Below, in pieces: positions 27,041-64,000 of a stretch of DNA of 64,000 nt. The notes under the pieces were generated by a model that saw only the letters and a list, made by a program, of their open reading frames with translations, was not told the origin of the DNA and did no database searches. The stretch covers positions 10,919 to 74,918 of the forward strand of contig JAGVZA010000001.1 of the NCBI GenBank assembly GCA_018302985.1. Reading direction: 5' to 3'. Position numbers and translations under genes: made by a program. Source of the DNA: Candidatus Woesearchaeota archaeon (GTDB taxonomy: Archaea > Nanobdellota > Nanobdellia > SCGC-AAA011-G17 > UBA489). Numbering within the stretch: the first letter of the stretch is position 1; every line of letters begins with the position of its first letter.

Positions 27041-27253
27041 TTAGAAGTCAACGTTTAAGTCGTCTTCCACGCCTTCTAGATCGCTAACATCAATGTCTTC
27101 CTCTAAAGTGTCTAATCCAGTCAAATCTTGTTGTAAGCCTTCAACTGTAGGTGCATCAGTAGACGTTTGCTGTACAACTGGTTCTTGAGGAACTGCACAG
27201 CCAATCACAAAAAAAGCAGTCAAGAAAACAAAAGCTAAAAGTAATTTTTTCAT
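27041..27253 (-). CDS. small acidic secreted protein with a lipobox-like signal (VIGC)
   Basis: MKKLLLAFVFLTAFFVIGCAV signal. Its start overlaps the upstream stop. Confidence 0.5.
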   Translation of the reverse strand: MKKLLLAFVFLTAFFVIGCAVPQEPVVQQTSTDAPTVEGLQQDLTGLDTLEEDIDVSDLEGVEDDLNVDF

Positions 27254-28209
27254 GGGGTAACTCCTGCTACTGGTGCTGGTTCTGTTGTAGTCACTGTAGC
27301 TATTGCATCGCCTTTGCCTGATTGTCTAAAACTCTTGATGGCCTCTTGGAGAAGGTCATGTAATTTCTGTAAAGAATCTTTGACAACATTCTTGTCTTCT
27401 TGTGTTAATGCCGTTCGTACTACAACAATTTGAGCATCTATAGCCTTCAAGGAAGTTTCAATAAGACTTACTTGTTCAGCAGTTGCGTCACTAGCCTTGA
27501 TTCGTGTTAACGCTTGTTGTAAAAGAGTTTGTATTCGTTCAGCTTTCTTGAGCATGGATGCAGCTCGTTGTTGATAAGCATCAGCCTTTTTCTCTTTGAA
27601 GAGTTGTTTATATTTAACCCAGGTTTCTCTTACTTGAGTCATGACCTTTTTCAATTCTTCACGAGTTTTCGCTGCGTCAATTTGTGTCTTTAAGGATTGT
27701 AACTCTGTTAAAGCAGCGTCTATTTTTGTTAGTTGTTCAGTTTGAGTTGCATCAGCAGTGGCTAGTCGAGTTTTCAAAGCAGTAAATGCTTCAATCATGC
27801 GATCAACAGTTTTTGTTAAATGTTCTTTGATTTTTGTAAAGGCTTCTCCGCAATTTCCAGTCATGGGTTGATCTGTAATACATTTAGTATCAGCCCCGCA
27901 TTTAAGGCGGCACTGTATTTTAAGAACATCTGCTGCATCTTTGATCTCATCTTTGCGAGTTTTTGCAGCGTCTAGACGTTCTTGCATTTTTTTGCGAAGT
28001 TCCTGACGTTTTTCTTCTATCTTAGTAAGACGTTCATCTAATTTTGCTTCGCGTTGTACTTGTCTCTCTTGTATGCTTTGTTGTCTTTCTTCCAAAGTAT
28101 TTCGAACACCATATCCCCTACTTTCTTCAGCAAAAGCTATAGACAAAGAACTCAGGAGAAAAAAGGATAAAATAAATATTCCAAAGATTTTTTTCATAAG
28201 ATCACCCAA
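27250..28209 (-). CDS. secreted coiled-coil protein
   Basis: Signal peptide, then long heptad-like E/K/Q/L-rich sequence with one Cys cluster (CRLKCGADTKCITDQPMTGNC). Confidence 0.55.
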   Translation of the reverse strand: MGDLMKKIFGIFILSFFLLSSLSIAFAEESRGYGVRNTLEERQQSIQERQVQREAKLDERLTKIEEKRQELRKKMQERLDAAKTRKDEIKDAADVLKIQCRLKCGADTKCITDQPMTGNCGEAFTKIKEHLTKTVDRMIEAFTALKTRLATADATQTEQLTKIDAALTELQSLKTQIDAAKTREELKKVMTQVRETWVKYKQLFKEKKADAYQQRAASMLKKAERIQTLLQQALTRIKASDATAEQVSLIETSLKAIDAQIVVVRTALTQEDKNVVKDSLQKLHDLLQEAIKSFRQSGKGDAIATVTTTEPAPVAGVTP

Positions 28210-34372: not shown

Positions 34373-35275
34373 TTAAAGAACAAAAGGTCTGTTTTTTTCT
34401 TCCAAACTAATCATCTGTAAAGATTTCCCAATTCCCAATCCTATATGATAAAAAGAATATGCAGAAAGCTTTCCTAAGATATCCCCTAAATAGCTAGTTT
34501 GTTTAAATTCAACTTCAACAGCATCTTCAATGTTAGCAAGTTCTTTAGTTCTATTCAATGCTAAGTCTCTGCTGCCAACTTCATCAATTAAACCAAGGTC
34601 AACTGCTTCAATGCCTAAATAATAAATACCATTTGCTAAGGAAGCAACTTGTTGTTCATCTAATCCTCTATTGTGTGCTACATCAGCAACAAACACTTTA
34701 TGAATAGTTTGCATCTTGCCAAGTAACAAAGTTCTTTCTTCATCAGTCATCTGTCTGAATGGACTGCCAACATCTTTGTATTTGCCAGTTTTCAATCCTT
34801 CGTAAGTGACTCCATAGTCTTCCATCAATCGAGAGAATTCTAAAAAAGTAGAGATAACACCGATACTTCCTGTTAAGGAAAGTTCATCAGCAACTATATG
34901 ATCTGAAGCACTAGCAACCCAATAAGCTCCACTGGTTCCTATTTCTCGAATATAAGCAACAACAGGCTTCTCTGAGTTTTTAACAGCTTGAACAATTTCT
35001 TTAGAAGCGACAACTGTGCCTCCAGGACTATTAATTTCTAGAAGAATACCTTTGACTGAATCATCTGCTTGAGCTTCTTTGATAAATTGGACAATAGTAG
35101 AAGATTGAACAGTAGAAGCAGTAGTAAATCCAACACTGCTCTGACCAACAATAGCGCCTTGAATAGGAATAACTGCAATTTTTTCACGAAAATCAGTCTT
35201 GGAAAAAGAAGAGGCTGCATAGCTAACAAACCATAAAACCAGAATAGTAAAAAGAATTTGCCAGAATCTAGACAT
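34373..35275 (-). CDS. sppA: signal peptide peptidase SppA (S49 family, 36K type)
   Basis: IPIQGAIV, INSPGGTVVASKEI and GTSGAYWVASASDHIVA motifs, with an N-terminal TM segment. Confidence 0.88.
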   Translation of the reverse strand: MSRFWQILFTILVLWFVSYAASSFSKTDFREKIAVIPIQGAIVGQSSVGFTTASTVQSSTIVQFIKEAQADDSVKGILLEINSPGGTVVASKEIVQAVKNSEKPVVAYIREIGTSGAYWVASASDHIVADELSLTGSIGVISTFLEFSRLMEDYGVTYEGLKTGKYKDVGSPFRQMTDEERTLLLGKMQTIHKVFVADVAHNRGLDEQQVASLANGIYYLGIEAVDLGLIDEVGSRDLALNRTKELANIEDAVEVEFKQTSYLGDILGKLSAYSFYHIGLGIGKSLQMISLEEKNRPFVL

Positions 35276-35726
35276 AGCTAATCACCTCGGTATGTGCAAG
35301 AGTTTCTGAGTAGCGTTGAGAAGTATGAGAGAAGAACATATACAAAACATCAGCTAATAACAAAAGACTTGAAAGTTTTGAAATATTACGAAGAAGGCAT
35401 TGAGAAAAGCGTAAGTGTTTCTGCTCACTAACAATCTTCAAATGGAAAAAATATTTGCCCAGAGTCTGTTGAAAGCGATACTCTAAAACAGTCCAGTAAG
35501 CTAGAGAAAGTATAAGTATTAGACAAACTGAAAAGAAAAATTGAAAAGTGTAAGTAGTAGTCTTGAAGGAATTAAACAAATCAGAAAAAGAGGTATAGGA
35601 AGTATCAAAAGAGGCTAAAGGAGCAAGTATTAAAGCAAGAATAAGTGCATCAATAACATAAGCCAGAACGCGTTTCCATAAAGGAGCAGGTTGTTCTTTG
35701 CGAAGCAATCTTTTTATATCCATCAA
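35268..35726 (-). CDS. RDD-family membrane protein
   Basis: APLWKRVLAYVIDALILALIL and QTLGKYFFHLKIV. Overlaps the sppA start by 8 nt. Confidence 0.7.
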   Translation of the reverse strand: MMDIKRLLRKEQPAPLWKRVLAYVIDALILALILAPLASFDTSYTSFSDLFNSFKTTTYTFQFFFSVCLILILSLAYWTVLEYRFQQTLGKYFFHLKIVSEQKHLRFSQCLLRNISKLSSLLLLADVLYMFFSHTSQRYSETLAHTEVISYV

Positions 35727-35762: not shown

Positions 35763-37448
35763 ATGTTCCACGAAGAATTAATACAACAATTGCCAAAAAT
35801 AAAAACACAGGAAGAATTGACAAAGGCAAAGCTGGCGCTCTCGCATAAGTATCATTTGAAAAATGTTCCGATGAATATGGAGATTCTTTGTCACTTATCA
35901 CCGCAGCAAATAGAAAAATATAAACCTCTTTTCATAACAAAACCAACAAGAACTATTTCTGGTGTTGCTCCTGTAGCAATTATGACTTCTCCTATGAATT
36001 GCCCTGCACAAGCAAAATGTACATTCTGCCCAGGTGGTCCAAATTCCTATTATGGTGACACACCAAAAAGTTATCCTGGTGGATCTCCTGCACATTTGCG
36101 AGCAGAAAGAAATAAATATGATCCTTATTTGCAAACTATCAATCGTTTGGAACATTATGTCTTATTAAATCAAGATTTCTCAAAGACAGAAGTAATTATT
36201 ATGGGTGGAACATTCACAAGTTATCCTCTGCGTTACCGACATGAGTTCATTATGTATATGTTAAAAGCAATGAATGATTTTGCTGACATGTTCTGTAAAC
36301 CAACATTTAATGTCTTAAAATTTAGAGAGTTTTTTGAACTTCCAGCAGATGTTAAAGATGTAGAGCGAACAAAACGTATCCATGAAAAGTTGCTCAAGCT
36401 CAAAGAAACATCCACAGTAGAAAAAGAGCAGAAGAGAAATGAAACAAGTGCTGTTCGTTGCCCTGTGCTCTGCATTGAAACACGTCCTGATTGTTCTTTA
36501 CCCGTGCATATTGATGATATCCTTAAGTTAGGATGTACTCGTGTTGAATTAGGTGTGCAAAGTCTCTATGACAATGTATTACTAAAAGTAGAGCGAGGTC
36601 ACGATAATCAAGCAACTATCGATGCAACACAACGATTAAGGGATAGTTTTCTAAAAGTTGGTTATCATATGATGTTAGGTCTTCCAGAATCCACACAAGC
36701 TTCTGATATCAGTATGTTCAAAGAGCTTTTCGAAAATCCAGCATACAAACCAGATGCACTCAAAATCTATCCGTGCCTAGTTTTTAAAGGCACAAAGCTC
36801 TACCAGCAATGGGAAAACAAAGAATTCCAGCCTATAGATGCGCATGAAGCAGCGCAAAGAATTATTGAAATAAAACAATATGTGCAACCCTATTGTAGAA
36901 TCATGCGCGTCCAAAGAGATATTCCAACTTACATGGTAGAAGCAGGTGTAGAAAAAACAAACTTACGACAAGAAATTTTTGAGTTAATGAAAAAAAAGAA
37001 AATAGTCTGTCGTTGTATCCGTTGTCGTGAGCCAAAAGCTATGGATGTTGAATGGAAAAATGTCAAAATGCAGAGATATGACTATGAAGCGGCTCAAGGA
37101 AAAGAAATATTTTTGTCTTTTGATGATAGAAAAAACGATAAAATTTTAGGATTCACTCGTTTGCGCATTCCTTACAAGCCCTATCGTCCAGAAATCACAA
37201 AAAAAACAGCAGGTATTCGTGAAATTCATGTCTATGGTGCAGCAGTGCGTGTTGGTCAGAAAACACTGAAAGACGTGCAGCATCATGGTTTAGGAATGCA
37301 GTTAATGGAAGAAGCAGAAAAAATAGCTCAAGAGGAATTTGATTGTAACAAAATGGTTGTGATTGCAGGTATCGGTGCAAGAGAATATTTCAAAAAGAAA
37401 TTAAACTATAAGCAAGATGGTCCGTATGTCAGTAAAAAATTAAAATAA
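35763..37448 (+). CDS. elp3: Elp3-type radical SAM/GNAT tRNA uridine(34) modification enzyme
   Basis: Radical-SAM Cys cluster (CPAQAKCTFCPGG), RVELGVQS and a C-terminal GNAT (HHGLGMQLMEEAE). Start at ATG 35763, after atttaaag. Confidence 0.92.
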   Translation: MFHEELIQQLPKIKTQEELTKAKLALSHKYHLKNVPMNMEILCHLSPQQIEKYKPLFITKPTRTISGVAPVAIMTSPMNCPAQAKCTFCPGGPNSYYGDTPKSYPGGSPAHLRAERNKYDPYLQTINRLEHYVLLNQDFSKTEVIIMGGTFTSYPLRYRHEFIMYMLKAMNDFADMFCKPTFNVLKFREFFELPADVKDVERTKRIHEKLLKLKETSTVEKEQKRNETSAVRCPVLCIETRPDCSLPVHIDDILKLGCTRVELGVQSLYDNVLLKVERGHDNQATIDATQRLRDSFLKVGYHMMLGLPESTQASDISMFKELFENPAYKPDALKIYPCLVFKGTKLYQQWENKEFQPIDAHEAAQRIIEIKQYVQPYCRIMRVQRDIPTYMVEAGVEKTNLRQEIFELMKKKKIVCRCIRCREPKAMDVEWKNVKMQRYDYEAAQGKEIFLSFDDRKNDKILGFTRLRIPYKPYRPEITKKTAGIREIHVYGAAVRVGQKTLKDVQHHGLGMQLMEEAEKIAQEEFDCNKMVVIAGIGAREYFKKKLNYKQDGPYVSKKLK

Positions 37449-37452
37449 AAAA

Positions 37453-37941
37453 TTAAGAAACTTTGCCACAAATAACGTAAGCTCTTGTTGTAATAGATCC
37501 TGGACCCCATTGCTGACAGTACCATCCCCGTCTATCATCAGTAAATCGAGTTTGATGCATTTCTGTTCCCTGTGAATTTGCTTGACAACCTCCGCCAAGA
37601 ACTATATAACCGGGATCGCAATCAACTCGTGCTTCAGTGCCTGGTTGTGCAGCACTTTCTTTATACACAACTAAGTTAGGACTTAATTTCTCTGTAGACC
37701 AAGATAATGCAGATGCTACTGCAACATCACTCATTCCCCATCCGGCACTAGAAGGAATAGCCGCACATAAGGGATTTTGTGGATTAGCTGCGCAGTTCGG
37801 AGTAGCACCTTCAACTTCTCCGATAGTATGCCCCATAACTTGAGGATTATTGCTTCCATAGGCAACTACAATACTAACAGCAGAAATAACTAAGATAAGT
37901 AACCAAACATATTTTTTCTCAATAGTGATATTGATTTGCAT
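37453..37941 (-). CDS. surface protein with conserved N-terminal handle and a Cys-rich head (paralogue 3 of 3)
   Basis: MQINITIEKKYVWLLILVISAVSIVVAYGSNNPQVMGHTIGEVEG, followed by a unique 117-aa domain with 8 Cys. Confidence 0.65.
   Translation of the reverse strand: MQINITIEKKYVWLLILVISAVSIVVAYGSNNPQVMGHTIGEVEGATPNCAANPQNPLCAAIPSSAGWGMSDVAVASALSWSTEKLSPNLVVYKESAAQPGTEARVDCDPGYIVLGGGCQANSQGTEMHQTRFTDDRRGWYCQQWGPGSITTRAYVICGKVS
37811..37941 (-). repeat. 5' handle module, near-identical copy A
   Basis: Differs from 38861-38991 at about 12 of 131 aligned positions by eye. Similarity ends abruptly at the 3' boundary of the module. Confidence 0.85.
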
Positions 37942-37950
37942 TTTTCCCTC

Positions 37951-38493
37951 CTATGAACAAAATATTAACATATTAACATCTACGTTTCCAGTATAGGGGC
38001 GTACTTGGATATCCATTATTGTATAATGGAATGTGTCTGCATCTACAATAGTTCCCATAACAGGCACAAAAACTGGACCATACTCATCACTACTGCTCCA
38101 AGGCATTCTCTTGGCTGTTAAGAATACTTGATAGTTTGCATTAGGACAGGCAGGTGAAAACGTAAATTCTTGGCGAGCTTCAGCACCTTGAACAGAAACT
38201 GTTTGTGAAGCTATACGCATTTGTCTACCATTAAGACGTTGACTATCCCAAGCAATTCCAGCCCATCCAGCTACTACACCTAATCCCCAATTAGAATTAC
38301 GAGGACCAGTACAGACATTATCGCCAGAAATAAGTGGATTAGCACAAGTAGGAACAACACCTTCAATTTCTCCAAAGTTATGTCCCATAACTGGCGGATT
38401 GGTGCCTCCGTAAGCAACAACAAAGCCAACAGCTACAACTGCCAAAACCAAAAACCACAAATGTTTTTTCTCAATGTTAATATTAATTTGCAT
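37951..38493 (-). CDS. surface protein with conserved N-terminal handle and a distinct head (paralogue 2 of 3)
   Basis: MQININIEKKHLWFLVLAVVAVGFVVAYGGTNPPVMGHNFGEIEG, followed by an unrelated 135-aa domain. Confidence 0.65.
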   Translation of the reverse strand: MQININIEKKHLWFLVLAVVAVGFVVAYGGTNPPVMGHNFGEIEGVVPTCANPLISGDNVCTGPRNSNWGLGVVAGWAGIAWDSQRLNGRQMRIASQTVSVQGAEARQEFTFSPACPNANYQVFLTAKRMPWSSSDEYGPVFVPVMGTIVDADTFHYTIMDIQVRPYTGNVDVNMLIFCS

Positions 38494-38496
38494 CGT

Positions 38497-38991
38497 TTAT
38501 TTCTCCTTTAAGCAATAAAAAGTTATGCTACAACCAGGCACATCCGGACATGACGTGTCTCCAGCAAATGCTGCGCCACAAGTAGTGGACTGAACTGAAG
38601 TTAACTCATACCCCTGAGTCTGGCAATAGGCAGTAATTGCCCGCAAACAACCCTTATATCCTTGAAAACCACCGCGATCATTATTTCCTGTATAAATATT
38701 AGTATATTGTGCTAAACTCGAGATCTGAAAAGGAGCACTGGGTGTAAAAATAGTGTCTTGTGAACCATAAGTATAGCGTCGTCCTTCGATAAGTTGTTTG
38801 CCACTTAAATAAGTTGCAGCTTGTGTATTCATCACATCAATAACTTTCTGATCTACTCCATCAACTTCTCCGATAGTATGTCCCATAACTGGTGGATTAT
38901 TGCTTCCATAGGCAACTACAATGCCAACAGCAGAAATAACTAAGATAAGTAACCAAACATATTTCTTTTCAATGCTTATCTTGATTTCCAT
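38497..38991 (-). CDS. surface protein with conserved N-terminal handle and a distinct head (paralogue 1 of 3)
   Basis: MEIKISIEKKYVWLLILVISAVGIVVAYGSNNPPVMGHTIGEVDG, followed by an unrelated 119-aa Cys-containing domain. Its start overlaps the upstream gene by 16 nt. Confidence 0.65.
   Translation of the reverse strand: MEIKISIEKKYVWLLILVISAVGIVVAYGSNNPPVMGHTIGEVDGVDQKVIDVMNTQAATYLSGKQLIEGRRYTYGSQDTIFTPSAPFQISSLAQYTNIYTGNNDRGGFQGYKGCLRAITAYCQTQGYELTSVQSTTCGAAFAGDTSCPDVPGCSITFYCLKEK
38861..38991 (-). repeat. 5' handle module, near-identical copy B
   Basis: See copy A (37811-37941). The intervening paralogue (38363-38493) is clearly more diverged. Confidence 0.85.
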
Positions 38992-40622
38992 TGCACACCT
39001 CTCCTAAATGAGTAGAAGATTATTAATAAAACTATGGTTATTAAAAAGTTAGACCAAGTAAAGACTGGGAAGTTTTCTCCTTCTTGAGAATTGACACAAG
39101 TTTCAGTAAGTGGATATCCTGCACAGCTGCAATGAGTTCCCCCTTGAAGAACAGTACAAGTACGAGTTTGTTGTCCACCAACACAAGGAGACAAAGGACG
39201 ATTATAAGTACAAGTAGGCGATCTGCAAGTAAATGCTCCGCGGTCGCAAACAGTTTGTACTCCATTAGCGTTGCTGCAAGGTAAAGGATTACTCAAGACT
39301 TTGCAACCACTAGGTCCAGTTAAACAGAAGTAGGATTGTGTAAGATCACTTTGACAAACCATAAATGTTGCAGGTACTCCTCTACATAAAGGATGATCTT
39401 CACAACTTTGTCCATTAGTATTGATTTCTCGTCTGCAAGTAGAAGAACAACCATCACCACTGACAGTATTATTATCGTCGCAGCGTTCATTATTGCTGCC
39501 TTCTACAATGCCATTGCCACATTGTGCTGCTGGTTGTGATTGAACAGTAAGTAAAGCATTTTGTGGAGACGCAGTTTGTACTTGTGAACTGCCTCCTGTG
39601 ACAGTGACTTGGAAATAGTAATGATTAGATCCATTCAAGAAATATTCTGTAATCCAAGTACTCGATGCTGTAGCACTAGTACTATTAGCAAAAGTTGCTG
39701 GTTGAGGTGAGGATAAAACTAAATTATTATTGTCTCTGTCAAAGACTTGGAAGTGAGCGATTTTACCTTGACAGTCAGCGCTGCCAGTAACAGTTAAGTC
39801 TACAGATTCTCCTTCTAAGGCGCTTGTTCTGCTCCAACTAGCTGCTAGATTGCTACATTGTTGGCGATAAGGACAATTATCATCTGCAACAAGAACAGAA
39901 CAGGAATCATTAATAAATAAATCACAGACATCTCCAGCACCATCACCATCAGTGTCAAGCTGGTCAGCATTAACAGTAGTCCTGCAATTATCAGCACATT
40001 GAAGAAGGTTTGAATGTACTCTTGGATCACAAGGAGTGTTAACTAAACTGCCTAATCCAATATCAAAGACACCATCAGTATCAGTATCAGGTCTATACTG
40101 TCCTCCACCAGAAACAGTACCGTCAGAGCAACACAAGTCAACAGAATAAATACCACAATCAGATACATGAGCATTCGTTTCCGCAGAAAGTGAAGCTACA
40201 CATCTCCAGGTAGGTCCTAAAGTAGAGCATTGTCCTTGTGGTTGTGTGCTGCAAGTGATATTGCCAAAACAAGCACGCTGTTGGTAAGCAGTAAATTCTT
40301 TCTTTTCAACATGAGCATTAACAGTATCAGATAAACGAAGAACAACATTGGTGCCTGCAGTATTACATTGTCGACTTGTTGCTCCTTGACCATCCCAACA
40401 AACAGCATAAGTATATTGGGTTTGAGTTGCTAAAGCTGCATGAGCATTGTTAGATCCAGAAACACGAAAAAGAATCTTGTCTGTAGAACATTGATCACTG
40501 ATAGCTTGTCCTGTAGGGGAAGATATTTCGAAGGGAGCATCAAGATCATAAACAGAACTGGCTAAATAACCAGCTAAGAGTACTAAAAAAACTGGTCCTA
40601 AGACTCTGAGCTCAACACGCAT
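38976..40622 (-). CDS. large Cys-rich secreted protein with a C-terminal TM anchor
   Basis: ATG 40622 (MRVELRVLGPVFLVLLAG signal). Three ~45-aa repeats each carrying NAH(A/V). TSP3-like DTDTDGVFD and DTDGDGAGDVCD. CGNGIVEGSNNERCDDNNTVSGDGCSSTC Cys-rich repeat. Terminal TM segment plus RRG. Confidence 0.75.
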   Translation of the reverse strand: MRVELRVLGPVFLVLLAGYLASSVYDLDAPFEISSPTGQAISDQCSTDKILFRVSGSNNAHAALATQTQYTYAVCWDGQGATSRQCNTAGTNVVLRLSDTVNAHVEKKEFTAYQQRACFGNITCSTQPQGQCSTLGPTWRCVASLSAETNAHVSDCGIYSVDLCCSDGTVSGGGQYRPDTDTDGVFDIGLGSLVNTPCDPRVHSNLLQCADNCRTTVNADQLDTDGDGAGDVCDLFINDSCSVLVADDNCPYRQQCSNLAASWSRTSALEGESVDLTVTGSADCQGKIAHFQVFDRDNNNLVLSSPQPATFANSTSATASSTWITEYFLNGSNHYYFQVTVTGGSSQVQTASPQNALLTVQSQPAAQCGNGIVEGSNNERCDDNNTVSGDGCSSTCRREINTNGQSCEDHPLCRGVPATFMVCQSDLTQSYFCLTGPSGCKVLSNPLPCSNANGVQTVCDRGAFTCRSPTCTYNRPLSPCVGGQQTRTCTVLQGGTHCSCAGYPLTETCVNSQEGENFPVFTWSNFLITIVLLIIFYSFRRGVQWKSR

Positions 40623-40714
40623 ACATTTTCCCTCTCTTGAAGAAAGCAAGCTTCTTATTATTTATAAAGCTTTGTGTAAAGAGGGCTTTAAAACCAACAA
40701 AATACAGCACAATG

Positions 40715-40722
40715 TTTATAAA
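40715..40722 (+). promoter_or_regulatory. TATA box for rpl21e
   Basis: atgTTTATAAAgc lies 22 nt upstream of ATG 40745. A second TTTATAAA at 40661-40668 serves the divergent surface-protein operon. Confidence 0.55.
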
Positions 40723-40744
40723 GCCTCAACGCAAAAAATGAAGT

Positions 40745-41038
40745 ATGACTAAGAGAATTGGTGGTTTCAGGAGAAAAACTAGACATAAGCTACAAAAATC
40801 TCCACGAACCAAAGGAAAAATCAGTATCAGAAGATATCTCCAGCAATTTAAAGTAGGAGATCACGTCAATTTAGTAGCAGAGCCCGCAATCCAAACAGGT
40901 ATGTATTTCCCTAGATATCATGGTCGAACTGCTTTAGTTATTGGAAAACAAGGAGAATGTTACAAAGTGCAAATTGAAGATGGTAGTTTACAAAAAACAT
41001 TAATTGTCCATCCAGTACACTTACGAGGAGCCAAGTAA
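40745..41038 (+). CDS. rpl21e: 50S ribosomal protein L21e
   Basis: 97 aa with the GFRRKTRHKL...FKVGDHV...YHGRTG-like L21e pattern. Confidence 0.92.
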   Translation: MTKRIGGFRRKTRHKLQKSPRTKGKISIRRYLQQFKVGDHVNLVAEPAIQTGMYFPRYHGRTALVIGKQGECYKVQIEDGSLQKTLIVHPVHLRGAK

Positions 41039-46055: not shown

Positions 46056-46453
46056 GTAAAGTAACACACACCTCTGGAAAGCGAAAGCGTGCCATAGCGC
46101 GTGCTACCATAGCTGAAGGAAAAGGTATAGTTCGCATTAACCATCAACTCTTAGAAACTTACGAGCCAAGAATGGCGAGAATGCGCATCATGGAACCGCT
46201 TATGTTGGGTGCTGAAATTGCGAAAAAAGTAGATATTGACGTCGATGTTATTGGTGGCGGCCAGCAAGGACAAGCTGACGCGGTGCGTCTTGCGATCGCA
46301 AAAGGATTAGTGCAATTCTCAAAGAGCAAGCAATTAAGACAAGACTTTTTACAATATGATAGAAACCTTTTAGTAGCCGATGTAAGGCGCAACGAACCTC
46401 ATAAACCGAACGATTCTAAGCCACGTGCAGCCAGACAGAAGAGCTATCGCTGA
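46052..46453 (+). CDS. rps9: 30S ribosomal protein S9
   Basis: [12 protein letters not shown].., [20 protein letters not shown]-terminal RQKSYR. Confidence 0.93.
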
Positions 46454-47946
46454 ACAGTAGTAACAAATTTATTTTTTTGTAATTTGTATTTACGATTATT
46501 ATTTCCGATTAAATGCATAAATCCTAAGTGTTCCAAATTATTTTCTTTGCGAACTCTTTTAATTACAGAATCACTTACTCCAACTTCTTTACGTATCTCA
46601 GAAAATTTAACTATAGAATTTTCTTTGTAGATCTGAATAATTCGTTGGATTTTTTCTTCAGGTATTTTACATAAGGACTTATTACTCTTCTTGATTTTAT
46701 ATTTTTTACAGATTCGAGTAATAGTAGCTTCATGAACTTGAAAATGTTCAGCTAGTTTTTTATGAGATAAATGTAAATTATTACGAGCAAAATCTGCAAT
46801 TTCTTTGCGAAGAGGCTCTGGTGTTGGTTTTTTAGCTCTTTTTCCAAGATCATTAGCTCGTAAAACTCTATTGACTTTTATAGGACTTATTCCTAATTGT
46901 TCAGCAATAGTTACTGTTCTCGTTACTCCAGCATTATAAAGTTCTACAATTTTAGCAATCTTTTCCTGAGGAATTCTGTGTGGAATATACTCTCCTTTAG
47001 GTCTAAAATAAGGTGTTTCATCACGAATATTTGGATATTGTTTCATCATTGTGCAAAATTTAGCATATTTTTCATGTGATAAAGTCATTAATTGCTGTAG
47101 AAGAAGTTGAATATTATTTTTTCGTTTAGATATGACTAATTTATCTCCAGGATATTTGATACTGTCTACTTCTAATTTTTTAAGAGATTGATAATAGATT
47201 TCTTTTTCATCTTCTTTAGAAACAGATATATGAACACGATACTTTTTATCCGTTTTTGATAACTCTACACAACCCTCTCCAGCAATAATACCCCTCATAA
47301 ATCCCCTAATAAGTTCTTTATCAAAATTTAAAAGCTTTTCATAAGTAATTTTCTTGATAAAATGTTTGAGAATGTCACTAAAAAGTTTATTTTTATACTC
47401 CAGAACTAGCGTACCATAGTCATGGAATGACAATATTTTATTTTGTGTATAGTTTTCATTAACATAGGTAACTTTCTTTGGATAGGACTTTTCAAGAGAT
47501 GTTTTTGTTCTTTGCAGCCAATGATTGACAGCTTTAGTTTCAACTTGCTCTCTGTAGGTTTGATCTACAGGTTCATTAATGTTCAGCTTAATACTCCATC
47601 GCCAAGTGTCATAGGGCAGATTAAAGACATCAGTAAACCATTGCATAACTTGATTGATAATACAATATTCATGATTGGGAAAAGAAAGATTTCCATTAGG
47701 GGTTTTACCCATTTCAGCTTGTAAAAGGCCTAAAACTTCAAAAGTTTCTTCAGTTTGAGGAATATATCGAGGTAGAGTATAGGAGTACTCTTGAAATCCT
47801 GTACCGCTAGGAGCAATAGCTTCTAGGTGATAATTAACCATAATATGGCTTTCATCAAGTATAATATTGAGAGGGTACTCTACTCCACCTTCAGTCACGA
47901 TACTTTCAGGCAGATATTCCAAGACATCTAGATATTGTTGTTGCAT
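46444..47946 (-). CDS. LAGLIDADG-like double-motif protein fused to three C-terminal HTH modules
   Basis: Motifs [12 protein letters not shown] and [15 protein letters not shown], then three HTH-like repeats ([19 protein letters not shown]; [20 protein letters not shown]; [20 protein letters not shown]). The 3' end overlaps the rps9 stop region by 10 nt. Confidence 0.6.
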
Positions 47947-59159: not shown

Positions 59160-62100
59160 TCAATAAATCCTTCGTAATCGTACATAACGGAAATAAAATG
59201 CTAAAGCTAAGACAAAAAAGACCAAGGGTATTCTTACCCAAATAGTGGAAAATAATCTAGGAGGTTGTTGATTCTCTTGGACTCGTGACGTTTCCTCATA
59301 ATGAGGTGTTAAAGGTCCTCGTACTTCTTTTGAAGAATCTTGTAAAGTGGGAATACGTTCACGAATAAGACGACTAAAGGTCAAAGTAACTACATTGCCA
59401 TCAAGTGCAACATATTCTATATTGGCATCACTAGTGCTATCTTGAGAAAGATCAATTCCTAAACGTTGGCCAAGAGGAATGCTATAGCTATCTCCTAAAA
59501 CTGTAAGGATAACTGCTTCAGCTGTTGCATGAGGTACTCTTACACCATATTCTTGTCCTTGGTAAATAACACTGATCCTGCTATTGCGAAGAACTGAAAC
59601 TGTTTGTTGGATATTAGTATCTAAGTCTACTACGACACGTTGGTTGGCATTGTTTCCTCCGCCACTGCCGCCAGAACTTGATCCTCCAGGAGGGCAAGCG
59701 CCGCAGTCTTGTGAACAAAGACTACAACTTTCATCTAGATTACAATAAGTATCTCCACATGTGCCTGGTTGTGTGCTGTATTCTGAAAATCCAGGAACTG
59801 TAACTGTATAGTCTCCATTCGCATAAGTTTGACTGACACAAACAAGAGAAGAACAAACTAGTCCATCGCGTAAAGGAGTAGGAGCAGTTGTTGAAGTTAA
59901 TCCGCTAAAAATTAAAGTAGCTGGATAATTGAATTCAGAAGTGAGTGTACTATCTAAGCCAATGAGATTAGGTTGTAAAGTGATCTCAGTATCTAAGTCT
60001 AATGCTTGATGAATATTATTTACTATACGTAAGACAGAAATTTCTCTGCCAGGATACTGGAGTCTGCCTACACCAACAATGCCTAAACTGAGATCTTGAA
60101 CATGTTCTAAATCTTCCACTTGAGTGAAATCGGTTGTTAGACTTGGGCTAAAAGAAGTAACTCGAGGTAAAGGACAACCATTTCTTAGGCTTACAACAAC
60201 ACTAGCAGGAGTAGTTAAACATCGGTCACGTGAATCAGGTATAGTATCGCAATCACTATCAGGTTGACAGATAAGTGCTGAGTTAGTCAGAGATGTTGCA
60301 GTGCATAATCCAATACCACAACCCTGATTGATTCTGCAATCTGTAGGTAAAGCACAAGATCTAGCATAATCACATAAGTATCCAGCTGGTGCACAAATGG
60401 GACCGCCACAATCAATATCAGTTTCATAATTATCTCTTATACCATTAGTACAATCAATAACCTGTCCTTGAACTACATTCAGAGTAATAGTGTCAAGACG
60501 TTGAGCAGAGGATGAAGTTGCTTGTAAATCTACAATATAAGATTGTCCTGTTAGTACATTGCCTATGCCTAAGGATAAGGAGAGTTGACAAGTAGGATTA
60601 GGAGTACAACTATTGCCTTGTGGAAGCTGGAATGCTGCTGTAATACCTGTAGGAGCAGTTGTGCTGACTGTCACTTGTTCTGAAGTGCTAAAAGGAACAC
60701 CAGTAAGAGTGAGAGTAACTGGTAATTGTGTATTAGGAACAACTGTAGCTGTGGAAGGTTGCACTCCCAAAGCAAAAGTGAAAGGTTGTCTAACTGATAC
60801 AAGTACAGAATTAGAAGGAACTAGATCTCTGTTAACAACAACTAAAGAATAATCTCCTGGTGGAACGCCTGGTGGAATATTAGGCGCTTGAATAAGTTGA
60901 TGAGTAGGTGAAGTCCATGCTCCTTGGTAAAATTGTCCTGCAATTACAAGTGCAATAGGATCAAATTCTTGTCCTTGAATATCCAGAGTAGTAAATTGAT
61001 TATTCATCAAAAGAGGAGGATTTAAAGAAGTAATTCTAGGCAATGCTGTTATTGTAAAAGAAGCACCCATCGATGTTCTTCCTGAAGTAGGATTAAACAC
61101 AGTCACTTGATGTTGTCCAACTCCATAATCTCTTATTTGGTATTGGAAGACAATTTGTGTTGAAGTTCGTGAAATAATACGGCTAGGAATAACTGTAATG
61201 CCATCAACTCTGACTTCTGCATTTGCTGCGAAATATTGTCCTGTCAAAGTAATAGGTTGCAAAATAGCTAAATTAATACTAAAAGGTGAAATAGTAGTAA
61301 GTCTAGGATTTTCTTCTGTACATCCGCAGGTAGTAGTTGAAGCGCAAGTTTGTGTTTGTGTACATCCCCCATTTGCGCTGCATGCAGCACCACATTGTCC
61401 TTGAGTGCAAGCATAGGTACAGCTGCCAGCTTGGACGCAACGAGTTGCTCCTCCACTAGATTGGGTGCCTGAACAACCTAAGCACCAGTCACAAGAAGTG
61501 TCGCCTTCACAAGCAGCATTAACATTGTATTGATTACAACAATTCGTGCCTCCAACAGTCACTGGTCGTGATGGATCTGTTCCTGACTGATAAGAATATT
61601 GAGGATTGATCGTGCATCGAGCAGTTTGTTGTCCTGCAGTTGCTTGACTCGTGCAGGTGAAGGAAGCAATATTGCTATTCCAGTTCTGGAAGATACAAGG
61701 TTGTGCTCCTAAAAATGCTTGGATGCTGGGAACATTACCAACAGTTGCAGTACAGGTTACTGTGAAAGAAGTTCCTGGACAAATAGTAGCGGATGCTGTG
61801 ATTGCTGTGACTCCCACTGCGCAGTCTTGGTCTCCATCTGGAGGTGTGGCTGCAGTTCTTGGGCCTGCATGATCTGCTCTGCCGTCGCAGTCATCATCCA
61901 AAGTATTCGTGCATCTGTTGACTTCAGTCGTTTGATAATTATTATTGTTGTTTTGATATTGAGTTGTTCCACATGCTTGCCATCCTGAGACTCCTCCGCA
62001 AGATTGTCGTGCTCCTGCGCACACTCCTACTTGATTGAGACAGAGAGGTGCAAATTGTGATTGAATATCATCTGTTTGTCCATTACAATTATTGTCTTGT

Positions 62101-64000
62101 CCATCGCATAACGTTTCAGAACCGACTTGGTAATTGACTCCATAGGTTGCTTGTGCATGATTTTGATATATCGTTGTCGTACATCCGCCCACTGGCCAGA
62201 TGTTACTAGTGGTACAAGTTTCAGTTGCTCCTTGACAAACACCTTGAGTTAATCCGCATGCTCTGATTTGTCCGGAGGTGCAGACAACAACACTCAATGA
62301 GTAAGGAGTATTTCTAATAGTTGTTCCAGAGGTTCCAGTAACTGAAACTTGCTGATTATTTACAAGAGTAGCAGTACTAGATGCAGTTAAAGTCATTGTA
62401 GTAGAGCAAGGAGTTCCAGCTGTCGGAGTGCAACTAGAGGGATTAAAAGAAGCAAGTACACCAGAAGGCAAATTTGAAGCGCTAAAAGTAACAGAACCAG
62501 AACCAGAAACTTGAGTAGCAGTTATTGTCGACTGTATGGAATTGGTCAGTCGAACTGTGCCACTAGTTGGATTTGCAGCCATAGTAAAATCGAAAGAAGT
62601 ACTAGTACCCATGGCAGTCTGAATTTCAGAAGCGCTTAAACCTCTGTTGTAAATTCTAACATCATCAATTTTTCCATCCATCCAATCCCAATCTGGTCCA
62701 GATGCAGGAGGCCATGACCCTATATGAAGAGCCCCACTATTAGCAGGAGCATTTGGAATACCAGCAACAGTTTGTTCCAAAACACCATTAACATAAAGTC
62801 TCAAAGTTCCTGCATTCCAAGTGCAAGCAATATGATAATAGGTGTTAACAGCTATTGTAGTTGTAGATGAAGCAAAATTACCCCCTCCAACTCGACAATT
62901 AAAACGATTTCCAGGAGTCACTTCAATTTCATAAGCATGATTAGGAACATTTCCTTTTGCTATAATTCCATGCCATTTTGAACTATCTCTTTTAATCCAA
63001 GCCATAATTGTCCCTTGAGTAGTCAAATCAAGCAAGTCGTCATCAGCAACAGTTAGCTCATCATTTGTTCCATCAAAATCATAAGCCCCATTTAACTGTC
63101 CACTAGCAGATAAATAACTAGGACATGCTCCAGAAGCACAAGTTCCAGGCAGATTGTATATCGAAGAATCTATTGCAGGATCAGAAACACCAACAGTATC
63201 ATCAAATTTCCAATGTCCTACCAAAGAAGGATCTCCTTCTTGACATGGAATATTACAACAAACTCCACTTCCTGAGTGTAGCAAAGAATTTCCCAGACAA
63301 TAATAACCATTAGCACAAATAAATCCATTTTGCGCAGCACAGGATGGTGGTGAAGGAACTACAACAGTTACAGTATTAGAATAACTAGAATTTCCTCCAG
63401 CGTTGAAAGCTCTTACTTTATAATAATAAGTCGTAGTATGAGTAACAGTATTATCTGTAAATGTAAAATCATTAGCAGAATTAGTTCCGATCTGTATAAA
63501 TCCTGAAGTAGGAAATAAACTTCTTTCAATATAAAATCCATCTTCATTAGTGCTTGCATCAGTCCAAAGTAAGTCAACTTGCGAAGAAGTTAAACTAGAA
63601 ACTTGCAAACCAGAAGGGGCAGTAGGAAGATCAAAAACATTAAAACCAAATCTATTGCTTAATTGATCGTCCAGGTTTCTCACTTGAAATTCATAAGCAC
63701 TAGCTCCTAGAGTGAGGTTGGTTTGAATTCGGCTAGAGCTCATTACAGTATAATATCCTGTCAAAGGTATACAAGTAGTATCGAAACAAAGTTCAAGTCT
63801 AGCCCCGGGATAATCAAAATTATACCCAGTTATAGTGAAAAGAGTATTTTGATTGCTGGCTGCAGTGCTTGGATTAACTCCAATTATAAAAGGACCAGTG
63901 CTTCCAGCCCCATACTCATAAGCTCCAGCATCTTGAACGCTTCCTCTTAAATTACCTCTTATGTCACGAAGAGAGTTAAAAGTAGGCAAAGAATTATCAG
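59160..64000 (-). CDS. giant Cys-rich surface protein (over 1,610 aa; N terminus outside window) with a C-terminal TM anchor
   Basis: Frame is open to base 64000. IPT/TIG-like repeats, an FN3 (LQVSSLTSSQVDLLWTD..YYYKVRAFN), a LamG-like module (GHWKFDD..IDDVRIYNRGLSASEI), CDGQDNNCNGQTDD-type motifs and the terminal TM segment IPLVFFVLALAFYF. Confidence 0.85.
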   Translation of the reverse strand, partial: DNSLPTFNSLRDIRGNLRGSVQDAGAYEYGAGSTGPFIIGVNPSTAASNQNTLFTITGYNFDYPGARLELCFDTTCIPLTGYYTVMSSSRIQTNLTLGASAYEFQVRNLDDQLSNRFGFNVFDLPTAPSGLQVSSLTSSQVDLLWTDASTNEDGFYIERSLFPTSGFIQIGTNSANDFTFTDNTVTHTTTYYYKVRAFNAGGNSSYSNTVTVVVPSPPSCAAQNGFICANGYYCLGNSLLHSGSGVCCNIPCQEGDPSLVGHWKFDDTVGVSDPAIDSSIYNLPGTCASGACPSYLSASGQLNGAYDFDGTNDELTVADDDLLDLTTQGTIMAWIKRDSSKWHGIIAKGNVPNHAYEIEVTPGNRFNCRVGGGNFASSTTTIAVNTYYHIACTWNAGTLRLYVNGVLEQTVAGIPNAPANSGALHIGSWPPASGPDWDWMDGKIDDVRIYNRGLSASEIQTAMGTSTSFDFTMAANPTSGTVRLTNSIQSTITATQVSGSGSVTFSASNLPSGVLASFNPSSCTPTAGTPCSTTMTLTASSTATLVNNQQVSVTGTSGTTIRNTPYSLSVVVCTSGQIRACGLTQGVCQGATETCTTSNIWPVGGCTTTIYQNHAQATYGVNYQVGSETLCDGQDNNCNGQTDDIQSQFAPLCLNQVGVCAGARQSCGGVSGWQACGTTQYQNNNNNYQTTEVNRCTNTLDDDCDGRADHAGPRTAATPPDGDQDCAVGVTAITASATICPGTSFTVTCTATVGNVPSIQAFLGAQPCIFQNWNSNIASFTCTSQATAGQQTARCTINPQYSYQSGTDPSRPVTVGGTNCCNQYNVNAACEGDTSCDWCLGCSGTQSSGGATRCVQAGSCTYACTQGQCGAACSANGGCTQTQTCASTTTCGCTEENPRLTTISPFSINLAILQPITLTGQYFAANAEVRVDGITVIPSRIISRTSTQIVFQYQIRDYGVGQHQVTVFNPTSGRTSMGASFTITALPRITSLNPPLLMNNQFTTLDIQGQEFDPIALVIAGQFYQGAWTSPTHQLIQAPNIPPGVPPGDYSLVVVNRDLVPSNSVLVSVRQPFTFALGVQPSTATVVPNTQLPVTLTLTGVPFSTSEQVTVSTTAPTGITAAFQLPQGNSCTPNPTCQLSLSLGIGNVLTGQSYIVDLQATSSSAQRLDTITLNVVQGQVIDCTNGIRDNYETDIDCGGPICAPAGYLCDYARSCALPTDCRINQGCGIGLCTATSLTNSALICQPDSDCDTIPDSRDRCLTTPASVVVSLRNGCPLPRVTSFSPSLTTDFTQVEDLEHVQDLSLGIVGVGRLQYPGREISVLRIVNNIHQALDLDTEITLQPNLIGLDSTLTSEFNYPATLIFSGLTSTTAPTPLRDGLVCSSLVCVSQTYANGDYTVTVPGFSEYSTQPGTCGDTYCNLDESCSLCSQDCGACPPGGSSSGGSGGGNNANQRVVVDLDTNIQQTVSVLRNSRISVIYQGQEYGVRVPHATAEAVILTVLGDSYSIPLGQRLGIDLSQDSTSDANIEYVALDGNVVTLTFSRLIRERIPTLQDSSKEVRGPLTPHYEETSRVQENQQPPRLFSTIWVRIPLVFFVLALAFYFRYVRLRRIY

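Follow-up and report, generated by a model that had tools for sequence, protein, structure and literature searches.

In this study, we analyzed a 64-kb stretch of DNA from a Candidatus Woesearchaeota archaeon (64,000 nucleotides of contig JAGVZA010000001.1, hereafter the window) and focused on a surface-protein locus of four genes at 37453–40649. All four lie on the minus strand, in the same direction and tightly packed, and they encode one large Cys-rich protein of 548 amino acids (aa) followed by three small proteins of 164, 180 and 162 aa, here named g164, g180 and g162. The small proteins open with the same N-terminal module of 45 residues, which we call the handle, and continue into Cys-containing heads. 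Judged by sequence comparison, the handle is an undescribed N-terminal module that occurs throughout DPANN archaea. In this locus a tract of its DNA carries the signature of gene conversion between neighboring genes, and the heads that follow it have evolved as mosaics.

A repeat search recovered the handle as three direct copies of 135 nucleotides (nt), located at 37808–37942 (the reference, 100%), 38360–38494 (73%) and 38858–38992 (90%), and no further copy was found elsewhere in the 64-kb window. The initial annotation, which was made from the DNA letters and translated reading frames, had described the 45-residue module as common to the three small proteins, and the motif proved to be as described, with 26 of 51 columns invariant in the protein alignment of the three genes. 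It had also put the difference between the two outer handles at about 12 of 131 nt. Exactly 12 differences were counted between g164 and g162, seven of them in nt 1–27 and five in nt 28–131. The handle of the middle gene is far more diverged, again as had been noted, and differs from either outer handle at 36–37 of 135 nt. A single hydrophobic helix lies near the N-terminus of every small protein (about residues 7–33), and the number of Cys residues is even in all four proteins (Table 1). It was further claimed that similarity collapses exactly at the module boundary and that the heads beyond it are unrelated. Both statements hold for g164 against the other two genes, but not for g162 against g180, which share a homologous Cys-containing neck of about 40–60 aa past the handle (26.6% identity over 64 aa, E 6.5e-5 in a small database). 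The neck has the pattern P-x-C...C...WG..VA...W and is shared with the small proteins L001_169 and L003_171 of related loci.

The distribution of the handle was examined with an exhaustive HMMER search, in which a profile of 25 handle sequences was run against the representatives of 50%-identity clusters. The profile matched 2,577 cluster representatives at E<=1e-3, of which 426 also passed E<=1e-10. In the best 150 of the 2,577, the match is located at the extreme N-terminus (residues 1–82) of proteins that are 79–367 aa long. A consensus logo was drawn from 144 sequences, namely the three window genes and 141 top matches. It starts with a Lys-rich segment and continues with I-x-I-N-x-S-N(90%)-[KR](94%)-x-x-Y(95%)-[TS], a hydrophobic stretch of about 18–21 residues with Gly at fixed positions, and G-V-G-V(93%)-Y-A(100%)-Y-G; after a loop of 3–9 residues it ends in P(100%)-x-x-[MF]-G(100%)-H(100%)-[ST]-x-x-E(100%)-[IL]. 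The identified carriers are all DPANN archaea, including Woesearchaeota, Nanoarchaeota and Diapherotrites, and handle proteins that are named in their sources are designated as hypothetical. One subgroup has PNPGH in place of NP-x-VMGH (for example ..SQSVPNPGHSVNQI..). It includes the genes L027:3501–4244, L031:3498–3986 and L035:3498–4094, each of which precedes a surface protein of about 920–940 aa, as well as the proteins P0029 and P0031–P0034; one member comes from a Diapherotrites metagenome-assembled genome, so the module reaches beyond Woesearchaeota.

Curated databases, PDB sequences and the literature contained no family to which the handle could be assigned. No family in Pfam, NCBIfam or PHROGs matched the handle in the window proteins, and none in Pfam or NCBIfam matched it in the 144 sequences. 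The handle profile found only chance matches among PDB sequences (E>0.1; lipase nucleophile elbow, uS19 and polyketide synthase (PKS) acyltransferase motifs), and full-text literature searches on the motif and on DPANN surface proteins returned no description of such a family. As for viruses, an exact-pattern handle scan of viral contigs and a tblastn search of g162 against a phage collection gave no match. In distant genomes the handle genes form arrays between tRNA-synthetase and tRNA-binding genes, among housekeeping genes, and no conserved peptidase or large partner was found near the arrays in the distant genomes examined. A possible active site of an acyltransferase or alpha/beta hydrolase (GHSxGE/GxSxG) was considered and rejected. 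The Ser is present in 83% of the sequences, and the window genes carry T, N and T instead; the likeness of GH[ST]xGE to GHSxG(E) is therefore a short-motif coincidence, and it explains the spurious Acyl_transf_1, lipase and PKS matches. The Acyl_transf_1 match is below threshold (12.6 bits versus a cut-off of 32.7), and the variable heads begin only about 15 residues past the helix, as against about 300 aa for an alpha/beta hydrolase fold.

The initial annotation had also read the two outer handles as a gene-conversion signature, and nucleotide-level alignment of the three genes with orthologue controls agrees with it, in that divergence is non-uniform along the genes and the orthologue and paralogue relationships are incongruent. 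Over the handle core (codons 10–45), g164 and g162 share 95% nt identity, versus 69–73% between either of them and g180 and 63–75% between g164 or g162 and the handle of any orthologue. Synonymous divergence (dS, Nei-Gojobori) is 0.18 between the cores of g164 and g162 and 0.88–1.08 between either and g180, and the probability of five or fewer differences in 108 nt is 4e-10 given the 28% divergence typical of other handle pairs. Compared with its head orthologue L022_165, g164 is 96% identical over codons 1–9 (the overlap with the big gene), 69% over the handle core and 85–87% over the head, where dS is 0.44. Since dS is 0.18 in the handle versus 0.44 for these heads, the handle shared by g164 and g162 is younger than the split from the L022 lineage, and both genes are old. 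The donor was probably a g162-like gene, because g164 carries the N-type loop AYGSNNP, unlike the other A-type orthologues, which have the longer AYN..NP..PS. Comparable tracts between adjacent paralogues in unrelated arrays, which reach 97% identity along 147 nt in L034 and 87% along 200 nt in L009, show that homogenization is a property of the family beyond the window locus.

It is hardly credible that no conversion took place and that g164 and g162 are a recent tandem duplicate, with handles held alike by purifying selection and heads that have diverged or been replaced. The handle is indeed under strong purifying selection family-wide and tandem duplication would yield adjacent paralogues, but this reading is contradicted by the synonymous divergence, which is low between the g164 and g162 cores and several times higher to g180, and by the orthologue of g164, whose head is 84% identical in aa sequence (dS 0.44) and whose handle is just 69% identical with another loop length. 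Moreover, the heads of g164 and g162 are unalignable, yet each has orthologues in other genomes.

We then compared related loci, which were collected by handle-based scans of GTDB genomes and metagenomes. The scans, of the kind proposed in the initial annotation for VMGHxxGE, recovered the same genomic slot in related genomes, and the eight genome matches (8/8) belong to Woesearchaeota, Nanoarchaeia or an uncultured archaeon. The order in the slot is L21e, the large Cys-rich protein, a variable number of handle genes, a convergent Elp3 gene, RDD and SppA, and the first small gene overlaps the stop of the big gene at every syntenic locus. There is one small gene with a g164-type head in L002 and L024, one with a neck-type head in L001 and L023 (L023 runs off the contig end), two small genes in L003 and L022, and three in the window. 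Orthologues of the g164 head are L002_161 (49% aa identity), L022_165 (84%) and P0003 (72%), and the handle of P0003 is identical in aa sequence to that of g164. L001_169 joins a neck of the g162/g180 type to a C-terminal Cys domain like that of g164 and L002 (33–35% identity). By these comparisons the heads are mosaic.

The population was checked with ten loci (L012–L021) taken from 24 contigs carrying g164. The organism occurs in the ANAN16 / SAMN038424xx samples of the Rifle aquifer. Over the small genes the ten loci share 99.75–100% nt identity with the window, with few mismatches, and the g164 product is exact in 10/10. The check for head-swapping variants that had been proposed earlier thus found none among the ten loci, and head swapping is not ongoing within this sampled population. 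Given this near-invariance across samples, head exchange is an evolutionary process and not a switching mechanism. A repeat search found no inverted repeats in 37300–40800 and the locus has no recombinase for a shufflon; a shufflon, a diversity-generating retroelement or a phase-variable cassette was rejected on the lack of inverted repeats and the identity of the ten loci. An apparent loss of g180 in L017 was also rejected, being a run of N. In the one variant contig, L015, which comes from another sample, the three small genes are free of differences from the window, and all differences are confined to the big gene. Its big gene (L015:149–1819, compared with window 38976–40622) has about 75 differences, all in the first ~500 nt, and its first ~135 codons are of the type found in the L002 genome, which may reflect either a true recombinant N-terminal domain or a chimeric metagenome assembly.

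Among the heads, that of g162 is the best defined. It has the pattern C-x-x-G-x-x-x-x-GGGC...W-x-C...C and belongs to a recurrent domain, C-P-x-G-x4-GGGC...W-x-C...Y-A-I-C. AlphaFold modelled it as a beta-sandwich with a pLDDT (predicted local distance difference test) of 70–79, although the two models obtained are mediocre as a whole (mean pLDDT 61 and 63). Foldseek gave no match at E<=0.001; the best fold matches of g162 were non-significant (E 0.05–0.5) and included resistin, RELM-beta, the PCSK9 Cys-rich domain, the R2 pyocin fibre and a cyanophage tailspike receptor-binding domain, with E values of 0.24–0.5 for the pyocin fibre and tailspike domains. No informative match was obtained for the heads of g164 and g180, and the fold matches of g164 were meaningless. 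Structure prediction of the heads, which had been proposed at the outset, thus gave a beta-sandwich for g162 but no significant fold match, and was uninformative for g164. In the 144 sequences, Pfam recognized Peptidase_S74 twice and Collar, Gp53-like_C, collagen-IV C4 and Shufflon_N once each, and many further members contain a C-x-x-G-Q-x-L-x-W-x-G-x-x-W-x-C knot or a GNVGIGT motif. No fibre domain was recognized in the three window heads. The head domains of the family are of types seen in fibrous receptor-binding proteins, which supports, without proving, a binding role. The label "adhesin" used earlier is accordingly not established for this locus, since it draws on tail-fibre-type domains in other members and on the weak fold likeness of g162. 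The matches to collagen type IV C4 (NC1; E 1.4e-28) and to Shufflon_N (E 1.9e-6) come from two different DPANN handle proteins among P0037–P0177.

The anatomy of the handle was compared with known export signals. Class III prepilin signals are cut by PibD/FlaK-type peptidases, which require G/A before the hydrophobic stretch. In the handle, the helix is preceded by N (90%) and then K/R (94%), never by G/A, and the window genes have KK-Y or KK-H; the handle is therefore outside the class III pattern, in which the initial annotation could not place it. It does share with class III signals a short charged leader and a hydrophobic helix of about 20 residues, a trait that is not pilin-specific. No pilin or archaellin model of Pfam or NCBIfam matched the window proteins or the 144 sequences, and no pilus ATPase, platform protein or prepilin (A24) peptidase was present in the neighborhoods examined, where aminoacyl-tRNA synthetases, ribosomal proteins, Elp3, RDD and SppA were found. 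On the other side, the rules for Sec signals agree with the handle. Its N-terminus is Lys-rich and is followed by 18–21 hydrophobic residues, which is long for an h-region and reaches the length of transmembrane (TM) anchors; position -3 is V in 93% (V/I in 97%), position -1 is A in 100% (V-V-A|Y-G in the window), and Gly occupies the positions three and five residues before the invariant Ala in 89% and 73%, respectively. The SipW-cognate/TasA-type model of NCBIfam, TIGR04088, matched neither the window proteins nor the 144 sequences. AlphaFold predicted a confident helix at residues 8/9–28 (pLDDT up to 95) and then a low-confidence coil over the motif; this collar reaches a pLDDT of 47–63 with no defined structure, despite 69 aligned sequences, which would suit a linear motif acting through a partner, a metal or oligomerization. 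Read in this way, the handle fits a Sec signal-anchor, or possibly a cleaved signal, followed by an invariant collar next to the membrane. A new signal for export, processing or anchoring, as suggested in the initial annotation, is not established, as ordinary Sec-type anatomy fits and no dedicated enzyme is encoded nearby.

Taken as a whole, the reading we prefer, and which we regard as about evenly balanced between right and wrong, is that a membrane anchor inserted by Sec shows interchangeable binding heads and that its DNA serves at the same time as a recombination patch. The operon would encode a type I-anchored, disulfide-rich large surface protein and three small surface proteins. Each small protein would consist of a Lys-rich cytoplasmic beta-like stretch, the SN[KR]xxY flank, a Gly-containing TM helix of about 20 residues that ends in GVGVYA-YG, an invariant extracellular collar P-x3-G-H-x3-E-[ILV], and an interchangeable disulfide-bonded head. 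We infer an N-in/C-out topology because the n-region is positive and the Cys counts are even in all heads; the module would be inserted via Sec and remain as the membrane anchor. The P..GH...E collar may be a short linear motif at the membrane surface for oligomerization or for binding a metal or a partner, possibly the co-encoded 548-aa protein, and the head would be exposed at the surface to bind ligands of the host or the environment. Near-identical handle DNA in neighboring genes would act as a patch of homology, so that recombination could reassort the heads and homogenize the handles. In the window locus, about 100 nt were copied into g164, probably from a g162-like gene. Several points weigh against this preferred reading. 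With A at -1, V at -3 and Gly before them, the end of the helix resembles a textbook signal-peptidase I site, which makes cleavage a serious alternative. The collar has no defined structure in the AlphaFold models, so its role is a guess. No window head matches a known binding domain (fold matches E>0.05), the large protein is not a universal partner, being absent from distant arrays, and the cassette is essentially invariant in the ten population loci.

The cleavage alternative, less probable than a retained anchor, is that the handle acts as a Sec signal peptide, which an archaeal signal peptidase of the Sec11/SipW type would cut behind V-x-A (in the window, VVA|YG). Cleavage would expose YG-x3-P-x2-MGH-x2-GE as a conserved N-terminus, and this docking or donor peptide would hold the released head on the S-layer, the 548-aa protein or another subunit; the semi-tryptic peptide YGSNNPPVMGHTIGEVDGVDQK would be expected. 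Docking and donor peptides of this kind are known from the adenovirus fibre tail and from donor-strand pili. The residues at -1 and -3 and the two preceding Gly agree with cleavage, as do the aromatic residues at -2 and +1, the positive n-region and a motif that is unstructured in the monomer models, as expected of a docking peptide; the TasA site GGGTWA|AF resembles GVGVYA|YG, and a gene for SppA (S49) is conserved in synteny two genes from the cassette, although this last point is weak. However, the hydrophobic stretch of 18–21 residues is long for a cleaved signal, the SN[KR]xxY flank and the whole helix are conserved far past the needs of a disposable signal, the signal-class models of NCBIfam, the SipW-cognate one included, gave no match, and a common donor-strand acceptor groove is unlikely for heads of unrelated folds. 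We consider it rather unlikely that the handle is a dedicated, DPANN-specific sorting or assembly signal, in which the collar, and perhaps SN[KR]xxY, would be recognized by a machinery or by the large Cys-rich protein and the receptor-binding heads would be processed, oligomerized or covalently attached to a common base at the cell surface.

Two further explanations concern the nature of the small proteins. They might be secreted effectors or toxins, archaeocin-like or polymorphic-toxin-like, in which a conserved leader precedes hypervariable Cys-rich payloads and which the large protein delivers or presents, as suggested for the VARTIG modules of Thermococcales. The combination of a large surface protein with variable small downstream genes in one slot parallels VARTIG (PMC8416519), the payloads would be small, disulfide-bonded and fast-evolving, and the g162 head is weakly like resistin-type Cys-rich hormones. 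This is nevertheless quite improbable, as scans of Pfam, NCBIfam and PHROGs revealed no toxin, immunity or protease domain, the small genes share with the 3' end of the big gene only short matches at chance level, the recognizable heads of the family are receptor-binding or fibre domains, and there are no immunity-like partner genes. Finally, the handle might be a non-canonical type IV prepilin (class III) signal, with the small proteins as modular minor pilins with variable tips, like the PilV shufflon adhesins or the modular pilins of Streptococcus sanguinis. The charged short leader, the conserved hydrophobic helix of ~20 aa, the variable globular module and the tandem genes all agree with such pilins, and one family member matches Shufflon_N (E 1.9e-6). 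But K/R (94%) stands before the helix and N (90%) ahead of it, never G/A; no pilin model matched, the neighborhoods examined contain no ATPase, platform protein or prepilin peptidase, and the locus has neither inverted repeats nor a recombinase, so that we hold this explanation very improbable.

The closest analogies appear to be motif-bearing signal peptides, modular pilins, phage tail fibres and VARTIG, and by comparison with them the handle proteins seem to belong to none. YSIRK/GS signal peptides of Gram-positive surface proteins and SipW-cognate TasA-like signals are family-specific signals with a motif. Like the handle, they are N-terminal targeting sequences conserved past generic needs on unrelated surface proteins, and they too combine a positive n-region with a hydrophobic core and with small residues at -3/-1; unlike them, the handle has its own motif and its DPANN lineage, and its conservation runs 15 residues past the helix into the P..GH...E collar. 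Phage tail fibres and tailspikes also combine a conserved N-terminal module with mosaic, horizontally reassorted C-terminal heads and breakpoints at or near the boundary, and some handle proteins carry Peptidase_S74, Collar or Gp53-like_C, but the handle is a TM helix of a cellular protein whose genes lie among housekeeping genes, and no phage match was found. Modular type IV pilins and PilV resemble the handle proteins in a constant hydrophobic N-terminal module, alternative C-terminal modules and clustered variants, whereas the handle lacks the prepilin motif and the locus has no pilus machinery, invertible segments or recombinase.

The VARTIG systems of Thermococcales consist of a large secreted or anchored protein and strain-variable small downstream genes with recombination (Makarova et al. 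2021, PMC8416519); their function is unknown and thought to lie in cell-cell recognition or conflict (PMC8416519). Both VARTIG and the present locus are archaeal, with a large surface protein, then variable small genes, and evidence of recombination. However, the window proteins are unrelated to those of VARTIG and lack both Ig/CARDB domains and the C-terminal DNNxxxGG motif. Hypervariability also sits elsewhere, at the C-terminal end of the large protein in VARTIG but in the heads of the small handle genes in our case.

Near-identical leader-encoding 5' ends joined to divergent mature parts are also found in variable lipoprotein or surface-antigen families, such as Mycoplasma Vlp and Borrelia Vsp/Vlp, and in the conotoxin superfamilies of venoms. 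As in the handle genes, the shared 5' end promotes recombination among paralogues, but the window locus has no lipobox, phase-variation repeats or silent cassettes, and is essentially clonal in the population.

Little is known of host recognition and attachment in DPANN archaea, whose surface proteins mostly carry no annotation other than "hypothetical". The 45-residue tag flags about 2,600 protein clusters and could give, from sequence alone, a list of candidate host-recognition proteins for each DPANN genome. The handle also defines a short testable peptide, YG-x3-P-x2-MGH-x2-GE, for cleavage and for metal or partner binding, and the locus offers a clean natural case in which short-tract gene conversion and the reassortment of modules can be seen within the reduced genome of an archaeon. 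Should the handle be an ordinary signal-anchor, it would still be a useful new protein family and not a new mechanism; if it is a sorting or assembly signal, it would represent a cellular counterpart of a phage tail-fibre/adaptor system, used by episymbionts to recognize hosts.

The features of the locus are compiled in Table 1. The layout given in the initial annotation, a Cys-rich anchored 548-aa protein followed by proteins of 164, 180 and 162 aa, with gaps of 3–9 nt or an overlap of 16 nt, is confirmed by the gene coordinates. The big gene overlaps g164 by 16 nt, and the gaps are 3 nt between g164 and g180 and 9 nt between g180 and g162. The start of the big gene was taken as the ATG at 40622, as in its orthologues; an open reading frame (ORF) from a TTG is longer (557 aa). 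A Shine-Dalgarno-like GGAG element stands just 5' of every small gene, namely GGAGAGGTG 4 nt upstream of the g164 start, AGGAGA upstream of g180 within the end of g164, and AGGAGGG upstream of g162. The putative TATA box TTTATAAATA is likely the sole promoter, and the oligo-T run TTTTTTATTTTAATTTTTT likely an archaeal terminator, both predicted from the sequence. Because of the short overlap and gaps (3–16 nt), the Shine-Dalgarno-like elements, the one TATA box and the one oligo-T run, we infer that the four genes form one operon. Rfam gave no RNA element at the locus.

Table 1. Features of the handle locus, with positions in the window
Feature	Position	Strand	Basis
Big gene, surface protein of 548 aa with 36 Cys	38976..40622	-	ORF, Pfam/NCBIfam, orthologues
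g164: handle and "A-type" head, 6 Cys	38497..38991	-	ORF and head orthologues
g180: diverged handle, neck and beta-rich head, 4 Cys	37951..38493	-	ORF and alignment
g162: handle, neck and beta-sandwich head (modelled), 6 Cys	37453..37941	-	ORF, motif, model
g164 handle, codons 1–45	38857..38991	-	alignment, repeat search, dS
g180 handle, diverged	38359-38493	-	alignment
g162 handle, probable donor type of the conversion tract	37807..37941	-	alignment, repeat search
Conversion tract, nt 28–131	38861-38964 (g164); 37811-37914 (g162)	-	alignment, dS
Putative TATA box TTTATAAATA of the archaeal type, about 40 nt before the big-gene ATG	40659..40668	-	sequence reading
T-rich run TTTTTTATTTTAATTTTTT, directly past the g162 stop and before the convergent Elp3 gene	37434..37452	-	sequence reading

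The 548-aa protein has a signal-like hydrophobic N-terminal segment and a C-terminal TM segment at residues 517–544, followed by RRGVQWKSR. Pfam and NCBIfam recognized in it only a DUF4215/myxo_disulf_rpt repeat and a thrombospondin-3-like Asp-rich stretch. Orthologues of the big gene occupy the equivalent slot in L001, L002, L003, L023 and L024, and the C-terminal anchor EE.FPVF....TI.LLI.FY.F[RK]RG..WKS is strongly kept among the orthologues. The protein also contains three N-terminal repeats that end in NAH[AV] (..FRVSGSNNAHAA.., ..LRLSDTVNAHVE.. and ..SLSAETNAHVSD..), and a 408-aa protein adjoining a handle gene in L032 opens with a similar element, ..LIMRLSGN...

Just past Elp3, at window 34373–35726 on the minus strand, lie SppA, a signal-peptide-peptidase-like S49 protein, and an RDD-family membrane protein. 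The same pair follows Elp3 in L001, L002 and L003, and L022 and L024 have a SppA-sized ORF of 300 aa at the matching position. The synteny of SppA may be a coincidence, or it may relate to the processing of exported cassette proteins.

Three other genes of the window, all on the minus strand, were noted. The protein encoded at 27250–28209 (319 aa) has an N-terminal signal-like sequence and a long charged coiled coil; its sub-threshold match to the Pfam retroviral GP41 family (28.6 bits versus 29.6) is probably due to coiled-coil composition. At the window end (59160–63989), an ORF of >1,600 aa, whose annotated TTG start may be wrong, opens with a repeat-like beta-rich sequence and probably encodes another giant surface protein. 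A 500-aa protein encoded at 46444–47946 has weak HTH_23, HTH_28 and HTH_7 matches in its C-terminal third.

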